Translations under genes and position numbers: made by a program
The notes under the pieces: generated by a model
Seen by the model: the letters and a program-made list of their open reading frames with translations, nothing else
What the model was told of the DNA's origin: nothing
The model's database searches: none
Shown: piece after piece, positions 4,751 through 17,155 of the stretch
Layout: each line of letters starts with the position of its first letter
Position numbering within the stretch: position 1 is the first letter of the stretch
Virus record (IMG/VR): IMGVR_UViG_2698536576_000004
Origin: a virus
Lineage: Duplodnaviria; Heunggongvirae; Uroviricota; Caudoviricetes
DNA length: 18,753 nt
Strand: one strand, 5' to 3'

Positions 4751-4809
4751 TAAAAACGGCGGCAGAGCAGTCACGGAGTAAAACTGATACCGCCAAACGT
4801 CACCAGAAA
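4751..4809 (-). ncRNA. dicF: DicF small RNA (ftsZ-targeting sRNA of the dicB operon) with intrinsic terminator hairpin
   Basis: Minus strand reads 5'-TTTCTGGTGACGTTTGGCGGTATCAGTTTTACTCCGTGACTGCTCTGCCGCCGTTTTT-3', essentially identical to the DicF sequence as I remember it, including the GGCGG...GCCGCC stem and U-run. Ends approximate to +/-3 nt. Confidence 0.85.
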
Positions 4810-7193: not shown

Positions 7194-8139
7194 ACGCCCA
7201 CTGGTTATAAACACACAGCTTGCGATGAAGATTGGCTTAAATGAAGCCATTGTGTTGCAGCAGTTGCATTACTGGTTGAGAGATACCAATTCCGGCATGG
7301 AATGTGATGGTGTTCGCTGGATTTACAACACAACGGAACAATGGCTGGAACAGTTCCCATTCTGGTCAGAGTCAACGTTAAAGCGCGCGTTTGCAAGTCT
7401 GAAAACGCTGGGGCTTTTGCGTTGTGAAAAGCTCAATAAATCAAAGCGCGATATGACCAATTTCTACACGATTAACTATGGGAGCGAGCTTTTAGATGAT
7501 GGCAAATTGAGCGAATCCATCGGTTCAAAATGCGCCGCTCCATCAGGTCAAAATGACACGATGGAAGAGGTCAAAATGAAACGCTCCATTGGTTCAAAAC
7601 GACCCAATGTCATCGGGTCAAAATGGCCTGATGATCTTACAGAGAATACAACAGAGATTACTACAGAGAATAAAAACACTTTTCGTCCGGAAGCTTCGCA
7701 ATCGGACCCGCAGACAGCTGAACAGAATTATTTAACCCAATATCCTGACGCGGTGGTTTTCAGTGCTAACAAACGTCAGTGGGGGAATCAGGAGGATTTG
7801 GCGTGTGCGCAATGGATCTGGGCACGAATCGTGAGCCTTTACGAACAGGCCGCCAGTGATGATGGCGAGATCATGCGACCAAAAGAGCCTAACTGGACTG
7901 CCTGGGCTAATGACGTGCGCACAATGCGGATGCTGGATGGCAGAAGCCATAAACAAATTTGCGAAATGTTTGGTCGGGTTCAGCGAGATCCATTCTGGGT
8001 AAAAAACATCATGAGCCCTTCAAAGCTCCGCGAAAAATGGGATGAACTGGTCATTCGCCTGGGGCGTTCACCTGTACAGCGTTGTGTGAATCATATTTCT
8101 GAGCCGGACAGCGAAATTCCACCGGGATTCAGGGGGTAG
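7174..8139 (+). CDS. Phage replication initiator/replisome organizer with DnaT-like C-terminal domain
   Basis: N-terminal wHTH-like 'LVINTQLAMKIGLNEAIVLQQLHYWL'. C-terminus '...ISEPDSEIPPGFRG' closely resembles the E. coli DnaT (primosomal protein I) C-terminus as recalled. Contains an internal iteron array. Start at ATG 7174 chosen; the ORF is open from 7120 (TTG). Confidence 0.8.
   Translation: MSLLFAERPLVINTQLAMKIGLNEAIVLQQLHYWLRDTNSGMECDGVRWIYNTTEQWLEQFPFWSESTLKRAFASLKTLGLLRCEKLNKSKRDMTNFYTINYGSELLDDGKLSESIGSKCAAPSGQNDTMEEVKMKRSIGSKRPNVIGSKWPDDLTENTTEITTENKNTFRPEASQSDPQTAEQNYLTQYPDAVVFSANKRQWGNQEDLACAQWIWARIVSLYEQAASDDGEIMRPKEPNWTAWANDVRTMRMLDGRSHKQICEMFGRVQRDPFWVKNIMSPSKLREKWDELVIRLGRSPVQRCVNHISEPDSEIPPGFRG
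7522..7626. repeat. Iteron-like direct repeats (GG(T)TCAAAA(T)G x5, 22-26 bp period) inside the replication gene; putative ori
   Basis: Copies at 7522, 7546, 7569, 7591 and 7617, followed by an A/T-rich segment with ACAGAGA(A/T)TA x3 (7640-7675). Architecture parallels ori-lambda inside gene O. Gives the protein its repeated 'IGSK' motif. Confidence 0.6.
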
Positions 8140-8141
8140 GT

Positions 8142-8354
8142 ATGCACAGCAGTAATCAACAGGCCGCAATCCAGCATTTGCTGGAGAACGGGGAAGCCAC
8201 GTTCCGGGAGCTGGCTGATGCTCTTGGTGTGACCAACAAGAAAATTCAAAACCTGCTCCAGAACATACAGCGGTACGGGCAGCTTGTGCGGGAGGGGAAA
8301 AAATATCGGCTGGTACCGAACTGGCAGGAAAAATCTGCATTGCAAAAGCGGTAA
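8142..8354 (+). CDS. Hypothetical small protein, possible winged-helix DNA-binding fold
   Basis: 70-aa ORF. ATG at 8142 three nt after the replication-gene stop, with GGGGG/AGG SD. Sequence 'FRELADALGVTNKKIQNLLQNIQRYGQLVREGKKYRLV' looks HTH-like. Confidence 0.6.
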   Translation: MHSSNQQAAIQHLLENGEATFRELADALGVTNKKIQNLLQNIQRYGQLVREGKKYRLVPNWQEKSALQKR

Positions 8355-8603
8355 CCGAAAGGTCAACAGCGTCGAAACAGGCTGCGGCGCAGGAATGTCG
8401 CCGGAACAGCAACGGATACCAGAGACAAAAAATTTTGGGGAGTAGTCGGGGAGTCGGTAACAGAGCTTAGGTAGAGCAATTGATGCCAACTGACCTCTAA
8501 CGTTTTGTTTCATGTTGTCATTATGTTTCAATTTAGTGGAATTGTTAATAAAATGTTTTTATAATTAAAAACCAAACTACAGATAGCATGGAGCTTTTGT
8601 TCA

Positions 8604-10160
8604 ATGAATGCCTATAAATTCAGAAATAATGATGAGATTGGAAAATTAGAGGCGGAAACTGATTCTTATCTTGATGCTTGTTTTTATGAGTCCAATGTTT
8701 TTAAAGGTATTGTGAATTTTGACTCTACTGAGAAGAATCCTGATTTTACAAGAAGAATTATTGTTGGAAGAACAGGAAGCGGTAAGTCTGCGTTGCTTAA
8801 AAAAATATTAGACAAAGGAAATATTAAGCTGCATGACACAATAGAGGCAGAAAATACGATATTTGAACATATTAATAACAATGTGTTTATATCTGATTTG
8901 ATCTCGAAAGGGATAGATTTACGTGGGTTTTATAAATCGTTATGGCTGCATGTATTACTTATGAAAGTTATACCAGCCGTTTATCGTTCTTCCTATCAAA
9001 GCTTTTTTGAGGAAATTAAAGATCTTATTGGTGGTAAGAAGAAACCGTATAAACCAGAAGTTGCGAATGATTATATTGAACAATTTAAAGAAAATTTCTT
9101 CAATGATAAAGCGCTCATTGAAATAAGTAACAAGCTTGAAAGTGATTTGTCATTCAAACTCGGAAATTCCGCTGTTGGTGTGGGTGGTAAAATATCTAAT
9201 TCTGATACAGCCAAAATACAATCAGAAACTTCAAGTTATGTGAGTCGTGAACTTCTTTTTAAACAAAAAGAACTTATTAAAATACTTAAAGAGGAGTTCG
9301 CTGACTCAAACCAGGTTAGAATAGTAATCAGTATCGATGATTTAGATAAATCTTGGTTAAGCACGAGCGCCATCAGATATGACTTTATTAATGCTCTTCT
9401 TGAGGCCTTTCGAGAATTATTAGATATAAAGTCGGTTAAGGTTCTGATATCAATAAGAACAGATATTTTAATGGGAATTTATAAAAGTAGTTTAAGGCAG
9501 GATGAGAAAGATCAATCTTTAATATATTCCATATCATGGAATAAAACGGAAATAAGAGAGATTATTGATGCTAGAATTAACCATTTGGTTAAAAATAGAT
9601 ATCAATCAAATAAGTCTGTATTAATGAAGGATATTTTTAATTTTACAGTTGAAGGTATTGGAGCAGATGATTATATCCTTGACAGAACAATGCTTAGGCC
9701 TAGAGATGCAATTAATTTCGTAAATATATGTCTTTCTGAGTGCGATGGTATGGTTAACATGAATGAAAATATTGTGTTAATTGCCGAAGAGAAATTTTAT
9801 TCATCCAGAAAGAGAGCTTTGGTTACAGAATGGAAAAGCATATATCCGTTTATCGAAGAATATTTGGATGTGCTTTCCTTGATTTCATTTTCTGATTTTA
9901 CAGTCTCAAACATAGGACAAGCAGTAAAAGATGATATATCGCAGCATTTACTTGATAGATTGACTGTAGTTAAAGAGGATGATCAACATACAAAAATATT
10001 GATGAATTTTGAGGAGTTACTTAAAGTCTGGTTCGTCGTAGGCGTGGTTGGCATAAGGAAAACAGCATCTTTAATTATATATTCATCTTTTGATAAACCT
10101 AATTTGGATATTACTGATATGAAGAGAGATTTTGTAATACATCCGTTGTTTGATAGGTAA
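8604..10160 (+). CDS. P-loop NTPase, 518 aa, KAP-like Walker motifs; AT-rich cargo gene, candidate defense/abortive-infection protein
   Basis: Walker A 'GRTGSGKS' (nt 8766-8789). Walker B-like 'RIVISIDDLDK' (IDDLD at nt 9333-9347), resembling the KAP-family hhhhDDLDR. Possible Arg motif 'LRPRDAINF'. Markedly lower GC than flanking genes (by eye, not computed). Preceded by an AT-rich promoter-like region (8500-8600). Confidence 0.85.
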   Translation: MNAYKFRNNDEIGKLEAETDSYLDACFYESNVFKGIVNFDSTEKNPDFTRRIIVGRTGSGKSALLKKILDKGNIKLHDTIEAENTIFEHINNNVFISDLISKGIDLRGFYKSLWLHVLLMKVIPAVYRSSYQSFFEEIKDLIGGKKKPYKPEVANDYIEQFKENFFNDKALIEISNKLESDLSFKLGNSAVGVGGKISNSDTAKIQSETSSYVSRELLFKQKELIKILKEEFADSNQVRIVISIDDLDKSWLSTSAIRYDFINALLEAFRELLDIKSVKVLISIRTDILMGIYKSSLRQDEKDQSLIYSISWNKTEIREIIDARINHLVKNRYQSNKSVLMKDIFNFTVEGIGADDYILDRTMLRPRDAINFVNICLSECDGMVNMNENIVLIAEEKFYSSRKRALVTEWKSIYPFIEEYLDVLSLISFSDFTVSNIGQAVKDDISQHLLDRLTVVKEDDQHTKILMNFEELLKVWFVVGVVGIRKTASLIIYSSFDKPNLDITDMKRDFVIHPLFDR

Positions 10161-10390
10161 TAGCAATGTGAATATGTTGAGACTACTGGAAAAGCTATAA
10201 CTCCTTTAGTAAAGTTTCCGTGGGTGCTTGAGGCTATCTGTCTCAGGCATGAACACCAAAGGCAGATAGAGAAAAGCCCCAGTTAACATTACGCGTCCTG
10301 CAAGACGCTTAACATTAATCTGAGGCCAATTTCATGCTAGACACATGTAGGTTAGCCTCTTACGTGCCGAAAGGCAAGGAGAAGCAGGCT

Positions 10391-10546
10391 ATGAAGCAGC
10401 AAAAGGCGATGTTAATCGCCCTGATCGTCATCTGTTTAACCGTCATAGTGACGGCACTGGTAACGAGGAAAGACCTTTGCGAGGTACGAATCCGAACCGG
10501 CCAGACGGAGGTCGCTGTCTTCACAGCTTACGAACCTGAGGAGTAA
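10391..10546 (+). CDS. hokD: Hok/Gef-family membrane toxin (HokD/RelF-type)
   Basis: 'MKQQKAMLIALIVICLTVIVTALVTRKDLCEVRIRTGQTEVAVFTAYEPEE', 51 aa, matches HokD/RelF as recalled. SD AAGGAGAAG upstream. In-frame upstream extension from 10334 not annotated separately. Confidence 0.9.
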   Translation: MKQQKAMLIALIVICLTVIVTALVTRKDLCEVRIRTGQTEVAVFTAYEPEE

Positions 10547-13684: not shown

Positions 13685-13851
13685 GACTGCGTCGGTTTGA
13701 AGAACAGACGATATACGAAGTAGTTTACTAAAGCAGTTCTCATTTCAGGTGTTATTCACTTATTCCTTCTTTGAGTCTCTCCAATTAAGTACGAAGTCGT
13801 TTCTGTTATGCAAACCATTTATGCCGAAAGGCTCAAGTTAAGGAATGTAGA

Positions 13852-14067
13852 ATGTCAAATAAAATGACTGGTTTAGTAAAATGGTTTAACGCTGATAAAG
13901 GTTTCGGCTTTATTTCTCCTGTTGATGGTAGTAAAGATGTGTTTGTGCATTTTTCTGCGATTCAGAATGATAATTATCGAACCTTATTTGAAGGTCAAAA
14001 GGTTACCTTCTCTATAGAGAGTGGTGCTAAAGGTCCTGCAGCAGCAAATGTCATCATTACTGATTAA
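13852..14067 (+). CDS. cspB: Cold-shock protein (CspA family), CspB-like
   Basis: '[38 protein letters not shown]...' with RNP1 'KGFGFI' and RNP2 'VFVHF' motifs. 71 aa. AAGGA SD 7 nt upstream. Confidence 0.9.
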
Positions 14068-14348
14068 AATTCATCGCTCGTCTGTATACGATAACGAAGA
14101 AGGCTGATGCCTGAGTAGAGATACGGACAGAGTAGTGAATATTGGATCTCTTTAATAAAAAGTAAGGAGGTCCAATACATGAAACAATGGCTAGCATATT
14201 TGGCAAAATCTTAATCAGGAAAAGTATGCTAACCATTGTGGTGAAGTGCAGGTTTGCTGCATGAATAGTTTTACAGCAGAAGCTAACTGCTGGCATGGCA
14301 AAACAAAGTGCGTAAGTGGATGACTCCCACAAAAAGCACCACAATCTC

Positions 14349-16586: not shown

Positions 16587-16737
16587 GGTGTTCTGGTTTG
16601 TTACAAATTTATCTGAAGCAGTCATTGTTATAATTTTATTATTTGTACCTCTTGAGATTTCCTTGTTGGTTTTTCTCTCTGATATTTTTTTTCGGACCAT
16701 TCTGCCCAAGGGCTAATTTCTTCAAAAGGTAATAATT

Positions 16738-16950
16738 ATGTCTAACAAAATGACTGGTTTAGTGAAATGGTTTAACCCTGAAAAAGGTTTTGGTTTCATC
16801 ACGCCGAAAGATGGCAGCAAAGATGTGTTTGTCCATTTCTCAGCAATTCAGAGCAACGATTTCAAAACATTAACTGAGAATCAGGAAGTTGAATTTGGTA
16901 TTGAGAACGGACCTAAAGGTCCTGCCGCTGTTCATGTAGTGGCGCTTTGA
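16738..16950 (+). CDS. cspI: Cold-shock protein (CspA family), CspI-like
   Basis: '[70 protein letters not shown]', 70 aa, with RNP1/RNP2 motifs. AAGGT SD 7 nt upstream. Confidence 0.9.
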
Positions 16951-17155
16951 GGTAGACAATATTACAAACCATATTCACTTTAGATGCCCGTGTTGTCATG
17001 GTTCCCAGTATAGAACATCATCTTTTGATGTTTCTGACATGAATCCTTTCGGGGCAAAATGTATCTTTTGTAAATCAATGATGATTACATTTGATAATAT
17101 TTCACAATACTTAAATGCCAGCCGTCTGTCGTTGGATTTAAAAAAGTGAAAATGA

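Follow-up and report, generated by a model that had tools for sequence, protein, structure and literature searches.

A P-loop ATPase gene in a Qin-like prophage

We analysed an 18,753-nucleotide (nt) stretch of viral DNA, IMG/VR record IMGVR_UViG_2698536576_000004 (the window; coordinates count from its first letter), in which a preliminary description had singled out an AT-rich gene for a P-loop NTPase as a candidate defence gene. The window is a Qin-like lambdoid prophage of Escherichia coli integrated beside rspB, and the ORF list and translation gave the gene as an intact open reading frame (ORF) on the plus strand, 8604..10160, running from ATG to TAA, whose 518-amino-acid (aa) product is identical to RefSeq protein WP_001741757.1. 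We assign this product to the Sll1717 family of P-loop ATPases and consider that it probably serves in anti-phage defence. Because 1557 nt stay open in 31%-GC DNA and hundreds of full-length homologues exist, the ORF is not a chance one. The gene's span had earlier been drawn from position 8500; its end at 10160 holds, and the roughly 100 nt that precede the actual start at 8604 are AT-rich leader. The locus comprises the following features:

8142..10188, plus strand: strain-specific replacement segment made up of a gene for a 70-aa winged helix-turn-helix (HTH) protein, a spacer and the ATPase gene, delimited by where flank matches in other genomes stop

8450..8603, plus strand: AT-rich leader (GC content 0.26) with a putative promoter of its own and a putative ribosome-binding site (RBS), read from the sequence

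8604..10160, plus strand: coding sequence, stop included, of the 518-aa Sll1717-family (KAP/STAND-like) P-loop ATPase, from the ORF list, the match to NCBIfam model NF047389, the RefSeq identity and the homologues

A windowed GC calculation confirmed that the gene is more AT-rich than the genes that flank it (31% GC against about 47–52%). Its GC content is 0.314, and 0.262 at third codon positions (GC3), compared with 0.516 in the 70-aa HTH gene, 0.474 in the replication-module gene, 0.513 in hokD and 0.523 in ydfU. The profile falls from ~0.5 to 0.26 across 8400–8500 and comes back up between 10150 and 10200, just past the stop codon, and across the 18.7 kb the GC content is lowest in the 1557-nt stretch that begins at 8471 (0.311 versus a mean of 0.439, standard deviation 0.047). 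Further AT-rich parts are present in the window, namely cspB (GC 0.352, GC3 0.236), dicB (0.36) and the regions at 13.5–14.7 kb and 16.3–18 kb, and the ATPase gene is the AT extreme among them. The composition had been taken to suggest recent acquisition, a reading that did not survive comparison with homologous loci: homologues are 30–34% GC in all hosts examined (loci L002–L024), even at 55–70% protein identity, in flanks that range from 0.40 to 0.54. Since this composition is kept whatever the GC content of the flanks, AT-richness is a lasting trait of the family, with no drift toward host composition, and not evidence of recent arrival.

Within the leader, a perfect −10 element, TATAAT (8560–8565), with a weak −35 element and an RBS, GGAG (8590–8593), can be read from the sequence; the leader DNA is not conserved among homologous loci. 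The gene may be transcribed from its own promoter or by read-through out of the early-right operon.

The gene is cargo in a variable prophage slot

The prophage opens with int, xis, a gene for an 823-aa exonuclease, ydfD, dicB and the DicF RNA, continues with a DicA-like repressor gene, cro, a YdaT-family gene, a 321-aa replication-module gene, the 70-aa winged-HTH gene and the ATPase gene, and then proceeds through sok/hokD, rem, ydfU, ydfT (the Q antiterminator), csp genes and lysis genes. Sequence common to thousands of other E. coli prophages ends at ~8141 on the left of the ATPase segment and resumes at ~10189 on its right. The flanks on either side of the gene are matched in 2627 and 4471 of 5426 complete E. 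coli genomes, whereas the gene itself is present in only 10 of them, at 99.8–100% identity and in isolates from chicken, pig and human; a 69%-identical allele in three further E. coli genomes brings the total to 13 of 5426. Other occupants fill the slot elsewhere: K-12 Qin carries ydfW, flxA, ydfV and the relBE toxin–antitoxin pair before the same hokD, and strain 14EC029 carries a DUF977 gene, a methyltransferase gene and insertion sequence (IS) remnants. The earlier proposal that the gene is cargo in a variable slot between the replication genes and Q is thus upheld by the differing occupancy and the small number of carriers. Because relBE precedes the same hokD in K-12 Qin, the ATPase gene takes the place of a toxin–antitoxin pair.

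Several observations concern the immediate neighbours and the alleles. The 70-aa winged-HTH gene (8142–8354) matches Pfam TrmB with 26 bits, has a GC content of 0.516 and is found only in the same 10 E. coli genomes; in every other host examined it is unlinked to ATPase homologues. Directly downstream of the ATPase gene lies a hok/sok type I toxin–antitoxin system, with sok at 10222–10396 (Rfam, 118 bits) and the hokD coding sequence at 10391–10546. In E. coli MS1657 the allele with 69% nucleotide identity (L027, 6987–8539) has an icd fragment on one side and, on the other, the integrase of a prophage integrated at icd; its annotated coding sequence covers 1284 nt only and the similarity extends over 1539 nt, so this copy may be truncated.

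The product belongs to the Sll1717 family of ATPases

NF047389, 'P-loop ATPase, Sll1717 family', aligned to residues 12–516 over model positions 1–450 of 454 with 180.5 bits, above its curated cutoff of 75 bits, and RefSeq gives WP_001741757.1 the same name. By these matches, its intact Walker motifs and its stand-alone length (518 aa, against ~450–590 aa expected for the family), the protein is classed as a full-length Sll1717-family P-loop ATPase. Its likeness to KAP proteins, suggested previously from motifs, was borne out by Pfam PF07693 KAP_NTPase, which passed with 28 bits at residues 58–300 (gathering threshold 20); this model is matched by only 8 of 52 broader relatives at E ≤ 0.001. 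Matches to nSTAND1 (22 bits against 27.1), NACHT (13.7 against 26.7) and AAA_22 fell below the Pfam cutoffs.

We found 428 homologues, of which the best 120 are nearly all full-length, and full-length homologues at 54–89% identity occur across Enterobacterales, Vibrionales and Alteromonadales. An exhaustive profile search returned 1793 clusters (50% identity) at E ≤ 1e-3 and 469 at E ≤ 1e-30; among the best 150 of the 1793, full-length members are ~500–593 aa long and none is fused to an effector or other domain. Cluster P0085 holds 110 member sequences of a 298-aa form that matches 58% of the protein at 100% identity; these may represent truncated copies or fragments at the ends of draft E. 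coli assemblies.

Searches with Pfam, NCBIfam and PADLOC revealed no nuclease, helicase or repeat-sensor domain in the protein, and the family profile, run against the sequences of PDB chains, gave P-loop-level noise only (LRRK2 Roc, Der; E > 0.03). Three other assignments were considered and rejected. The PADLOC hits mad8 and mad3 (E ~0.01) share similarity at the P-loop only; PDC-M28C (26 of 52 relatives, best E 1.6e-6) and again mad8 are weak matches among relatives; and for 'DNA repair protein', an older NCBI name on many homologues, we found no support of any kind.

The gene had also been called undescribed and without a match to any named system, and here the preliminary description has to be corrected: it is not a new kind of system, as the family is named in RefSeq and NF047389 and the protein's cluster stands on a published list of predicted defence proteins. 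That list, Table S10 of the DefensePredictor study (Science 2026, PMC13092281), holds 1,041 E. coli protein clusters with a predicted, uncharacterized defence protein, and the entry for the WP_001741757.1 cluster was scored on a plasmid member, WP_000026497.1, at a log-odds of 14.7. Table S4 of the same study contains another relative at a log-odds of 15.4, which HHblits places closest to PifA among known defence proteins. The motifs of the ATPase subfamily are absent from all proteins tested in that study. Both 'Sll1717' and the protein accession are absent from the main text of the papers in our literature search, and two 2026 papers, on STAND sensors and on domain-centric discovery, do not treat the Sll1717 family.

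Conserved motifs and predicted fold

Conservation was scored in two alignments, A1 (55 close homologues) and A5 (52 relatives, 25–63% identity), and the fold was modelled with AlphaFold2 from the 55 homologues, giving a predicted local distance difference test score (pLDDT) of 82.6 and a predicted template modelling score (pTM) of 0.79. The protein can be divided as follows:

8637..8684, plus strand: conserved N-terminal motif IGxLxAExDxxLxxCF, aa 12–27 (conservation in A1 and A5)

8766..8789, plus strand: Walker A motif (P-loop) GRTGSGKS, aa 55–62 (sequence and conservation)

8847..9308, plus strand: predicted all-helical insert of ~150 residues between Walker A and Walker B, aa 82–235 (AlphaFold2 secondary structure)

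9324..9350, plus strand: Walker B motif VISIDDLDK, aa 241–249 (sequence and conservation)

9447..9512, plus strand: sensor-1-type strand ISIRTD, then the loop RQDEKD (sequence, AlphaFold2, and A5, in which R285, Q299 and K302 are invariant)

9543..9839, plus strand: predicted helical lid, aa 314–412, with LRPRD at aa 364–368 (nt 9693–9707), of the sensor-2 or KAP 'PR' type (AlphaFold2 and conservation)

9840..10157, plus strand: predicted C-terminal winged-helix-like domain, aa 413–518 (AlphaFold2, charge and conservation)

Walker A, a Walker B-like motif and LRPRD had been recognised from the sequence before, and all three lie where they had been placed. Their key residues are invariant in the 55 close homologues, and nine ATPase residues (G55, T57, G58, G60, K61, D245, D248, P366 and R367) remain invariant in A5, as do E409 and W410, also at 25–35% identity. 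Within the N-terminal motif, I12, G13, L15, A17, E18, D20, L23, C26 and F27 are invariant in A1, and G13, A17 and L23 in A5. The RQDEKD loop (aa 298–303, 9495–9512) contains the superfamily-invariant Q299 and K302, yet has the lowest confidence of the model (pLDDT < 50 at 297–304); possibly it contacts a substrate or, like an arginine finger, a neighbouring subunit, and becomes ordered only in an oligomer.

The least conserved regions are the helical insert and the winged-helix domain. The insert, in which W114 and H116 are invariant in A5 and conservation is 0.61 in A1 and 0.25 in A5, lies where the transmembrane helices are found in canonical KAP NTPases, and is soluble here. The absence of a transmembrane segment, noted earlier, agrees with a top Kyte–Doolittle 19-residue mean of 1.58, and the most hydropathic stretch falls in the modelled winged-helix domain, where helix 469–479 leads into strands 482–485 and 491–493. 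A HEPN-type Rx4-6H motif or other catalytic site in the insert (R107...H116) was considered and rejected, because its spacing is wrong and none of the family models backs it. The winged-helix domain, modelled as three helices followed by two or three strands and with a net charge of −6, ends in the motif IHPLF (nt 10137–10151), whose histidine, H513, is nearly invariant in A5 and by analogy may be equivalent to the conserved STAND winged-helix histidine. The net charge speaks against DNA binding by this winged helix in the manner of ORC/Cdc6, and we rejected that assignment.

Foldseek placed Cdc6/ORC among the best structural neighbours, at TM-scores near 0.3. On the model, we read the predicted fold as a minimal ORC/Cdc6- and STAND-like nucleotide switch without an effector or repeat-sensor domain. 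The earlier statement that the C-terminal part has no recognisable domain is right as far as nuclease, helicase and sensor domains are concerned, but the last 200 residues are predicted to form an AAA+ lid and a winged helix.

Homologues are solitary genes in accessory positions

In every locus examined, the homologue stands alone, without a conserved neighbour and always in an accessory position; a comparison of nine homologous loci found no conserved partner gene or flanking DNA cassette, and DNA similarity does not extend beyond the ORF. In Serratia marcescens and Klebsiella aerogenes the homologue lies in the gpA–portal interval of P2-like prophages, which is the old/tin hotspot of anti-phage systems (Rousset et al., PMC9122126), and in Yersinia it adjoins the integrase of a 186/P2-like prophage. 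Plasmid-borne homologues adjoin integrase and toxin–antitoxin genes (Enterobacter IncFII-type plasmids) or parAB (a Yersinia plasmid), and in an integrative and conjugative element (ICE) of Citrobacter/Klebsiella the neighbours are relaxase, UvrD helicase, methyltransferase and ArdC genes. Dickeya carries the homologue in an island with Fic, and Photobacterium carries it as a solitary insertion among housekeeping genes. A 30%-identical paralogue, the 557-aa WP_000026497.1, is found on IncF plasmids, with full-length matches in 59 PLSDB records; the plasmids with a match are mostly conjugative and come from Klebsiella, Escherichia and Raoultella. On the E. coli IncFIA/FIB plasmid NZ_CP081687.1 (L020, 5995–7668), this paralogue is located among IS elements, near replication and partition genes.

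Elsewhere in the window, the DicF small RNA (4757–4808, minus strand; Rfam, 72.5 bits) lies beside dicB and ydfD, as in K-12 Qin, and two cspA-type thermoregulator leaders (13691–14083 and 16592–16977; GC 0.33–0.38) precede cspB-like and cspI-like cold-shock genes. Strain LH85-a is 100% identical to the window over 7700–10300; it has an IS1 (L001, 17892–18589) within its DUF2514 (Rz-like) gene, and the window lacks that IS1 (~16290), so that it derives from a different one of the ten carriers or from a variant free of the IS.

Relation to DS-41 and to other immune ATPases

DS-41 (construct AAA2, WP_033812887.1, 502 aa; NCBIfam NF053860) is a validated single-gene anti-phage system from the DefensePredictor study and, expressed alone in K-12, protects against lytic phages (PMC13092281). 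From the plaque counts in Table S7 of that study, plating was reduced by ~2.3 to 5.3 log10 for T4, Bas1, Candy, Bas63, Bas3, Bas69 and Bas19. The ATPase and DS-41 show detectable homology and the same predicted architecture: residues 1–399 of DS-41 reach 92 bits with NF047389, above the cutoff, NCBI names the DS-41 homologues 'Sll1717 family', and the N-terminal motif has a counterpart in DS-41, NPFEHYTAE(T/N)E. A profile–profile comparison of 43 DS-41 relatives with the ATPase family gave a probability of 88% (E 2.9e-6) from Walker B through the lid, and the lid region is the part that aligns to DS-41 in both hhalign and BLASTP. The two proteins differ at the C terminus, where the winged helix of DS-41 carries VADPR and is near-neutral whereas that of the ATPase carries IHPLF and is acidic, and in their standing, as a phenotype has been measured only for DS-41. 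On these scores and motifs we regard the ATPase and DS-41 as distant, separate branches of a single family, whose one validated member is DS-41.

Anti-phage activity that requires Walker B and does not involve abortive infection has been shown for several membrane-anchored KAP NTPase proteins (PLoS Biol 2026, PMC13552941). For EF_KAP in particular, Walker B is required for defence and protection is not abortive; Tmn, according to work cited in the same paper, acts by ATP hydrolysis, and many KAP proteins typically have transmembrane helices inserted in their P-loop domain (quoted there from Aravind et al. 2004). With this family, which includes PifA of the F plasmid, Tmn and EF_KAP, the ATPase shares the KAP_NTPase match, a DDLD-type Walker B, a large insert that separates Walker A from Walker B and a single-gene organisation, and the DefensePredictor tables link one of its relatives to PifA by HHblits. 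Canonical KAP proteins, EF_KAP and Tmn have transmembrane helices, whereas the ATPase is soluble and its insert is predicted to consist of soluble helices; in place of the 322-aa C-terminal region of EF_KAP, the ATPase has the lid and winged helix.

The antiviral STAND proteins (Avs, bNACHT, NLR-like) resemble the ATPase in the predicted order of nucleotide-binding, helical and winged-helix domains, in a sensor-1-type arginine (R285) and, if it is equivalent to their winged-helix histidine, in the near-invariant H513, and weak nSTAND1/3, AAA_16 and NACHT matches occur across the ATPase family. Unlike them, the ATPase has neither an N-terminal effector nor a C-terminal repeat sensor, and all STAND Pfam models stay below their cutoffs. 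RADAR RdrA and BREX BrxC work with partner genes (rdrB; brxA/B, pglX and pglZ) and are similar in structure only at TM-scores of ~0.3; no rdrB, pglX, pglZ or brx genes were found in the window or in any homologous locus examined. From ORC/Cdc6 and the archaeal Arch_ATPase proteins (SSO1545, 2fna; PAB2304, 2qen) the ATPase differs in that its winged helix is not basic (net −6), in its extra helical insert of ~150 residues and in its setting, as cargo of mobile elements and not at origins.

A probable single-protein defence system

Since the homologues are solitary in accessory loci, occupy the gpA–portal hotspot, plasmids and an ICE, and have a validated distant relative in DS-41, the ATPase is probably a defence protein that works as a single polypeptide without helpers, directed against phages (or, more broadly, mobile elements) and carried as prophage cargo. 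Its rarity and patchy spread among E. coli genomes add support to this conclusion. The preliminary description had proposed a candidate defence gene, and defence remains the best reading, with the activity itself something that we infer from mobile contexts and kinship with DS-41.

Several findings weigh against a defensive role. Identity between the ATPase and DS-41 is 24% over 74 residues, the hhalign alignment spans 149 columns only, and the DS-41 equivalog model NF053860 gives the ATPase 39.1 bits (E 4.5e-10), far under its cutoff of 370; with an identity so low, an alignment so short and an equivalog score below the cutoff, function is not simply transferable from DS-41. PADLOC-DB v2 (2023), in which the family is not included, gave no significant match, and tblastn against 50,697 phage genomes found no homologue. 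Without an effector domain, the killing or blocking step is entirely hypothetical, and the acidic winged helix makes a DNA-binding mode like that of ORC/Cdc6 unlikely. A consensus scan called no convincing plus-strand sigma-70 promoter upstream of the gene, the −35 element being poor. AT-rich genes in E. coli may be silenced by H-NS, and the Qin-like prophage may be cryptic, in which case the gene may be unexpressed.

If the ATPase is a defence protein, a switch mechanism can be sketched, which we offer tentatively and whose particulars may well prove different. The resting protein would be a closed monomer bound to ADP or ATP. A phage product would be recognised by the two most variable parts of the protein, the helical insert and/or the winged-helix domain, which fit a sensing surface because they are the least conserved. 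Recognition would lead to ATP-dependent opening and oligomerisation, for which K61, D245/D246, R285 and R367 would be essential. As there is neither an effector domain nor a partner, the assembled ATPase would have to do the work itself; acting as the effector, it might trap or remodel a bound phage or host target, or burn ATP like the KAP-type Tmn. A more speculative proposal, to which we give slightly less credence, is that Sll1717-type proteins, the ATPase among them, form a class of immune ATPase with a new mechanism, in which the ATP-driven assembly of a bare STAND/ORC-like switch, lacking both effector domain and partner, itself neutralises a phage component or a host factor that the phage requires, with the helical insert, at the position of the KAP membrane helices, as the sensor and with a trigger for the IHPLF subfamily unlike that of DS-41.

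Alternative explanations

The alternative that survives best, though we think it unlikely, is that the gene serves competition among mobile elements or their maintenance, either by excluding rival plasmids and prophages or by stabilising its carrier through addiction. The closest homologues (86–89% identity) are on plasmids beside partition, replication, integrase and toxin–antitoxin genes, the paralogue on IncF plasmids recurs in the 59 PLSDB records, the gene replaces relBE directly upstream of hok/sok, and the lack of homologues among phage genomes points the same way. A lone gene without an antitoxin or partner is a poor fit to known addiction modules, however, the Photobacterium homologue sits alone among housekeeping genes, and the protection of K-12 from lytic phages by DS-41 alone favours defence. 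This explanation overlaps with defence more than it excludes it.

A less probable alternative is that the gene is an inert passenger in a decaying cryptic prophage, either unexpressed (for example, through H-NS silencing) or without a function in E. coli. Defects are common among Qin-type prophages. The lack of a good promoter and the strong AT-richness would suit such a passenger, as would the truncated copies represented by the 298-aa form (110 member sequences) and the shortened coding sequence of the 69% allele. Against this, the ORF is intact in 10 genomes of chicken, pig and human isolates, at 99.8–100% identity, and full length and invariant catalytic residues are kept across genera down to 25% identity; this preservation points to purifying selection on an active ATPase.

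Least of all do we favour a part in the prophage life cycle, as an ATPase of the early-right operon that acts in replication, loading or packaging in the manner of ORC/Cdc6 or TnsC/MuB: the gene does follow closely on the replication module, on the same strand and without an intervening terminator, and the best structural neighbours include Cdc6/ORC (TnsC and MuB for the DS-41 model), but the far wider distribution of the flanks than of the gene, its presence in elements with their own replication proteins (P2 gpA, IncFII RepA, ICE relaxase) and at solitary chromosomal sites, a composition foreign to every host and the acidic winged helix make this role highly improbable.

Implications for the family and for Qin-like prophages

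If the ATPase is confirmed as a defence protein, it would provide a second, highly divergent and experimentally tractable branch of the Sll1717/DS-41 family, which comprises ~1,800 clusters at 50% identity. The family would also offer a STAND-like immune switch in its smallest form, a single soluble protein of ~520 residues without an effector domain, and so a clean system for asking what the assembled ATPase does. For the prophage, confirmation would mean that the replication-to-Q slot of Qin-like elements exchanges defence or toxin cargo (relBE in K-12, the ATPase here), in parallel with the P2 gpA–portal hotspot, where homologues of the ATPase reside.

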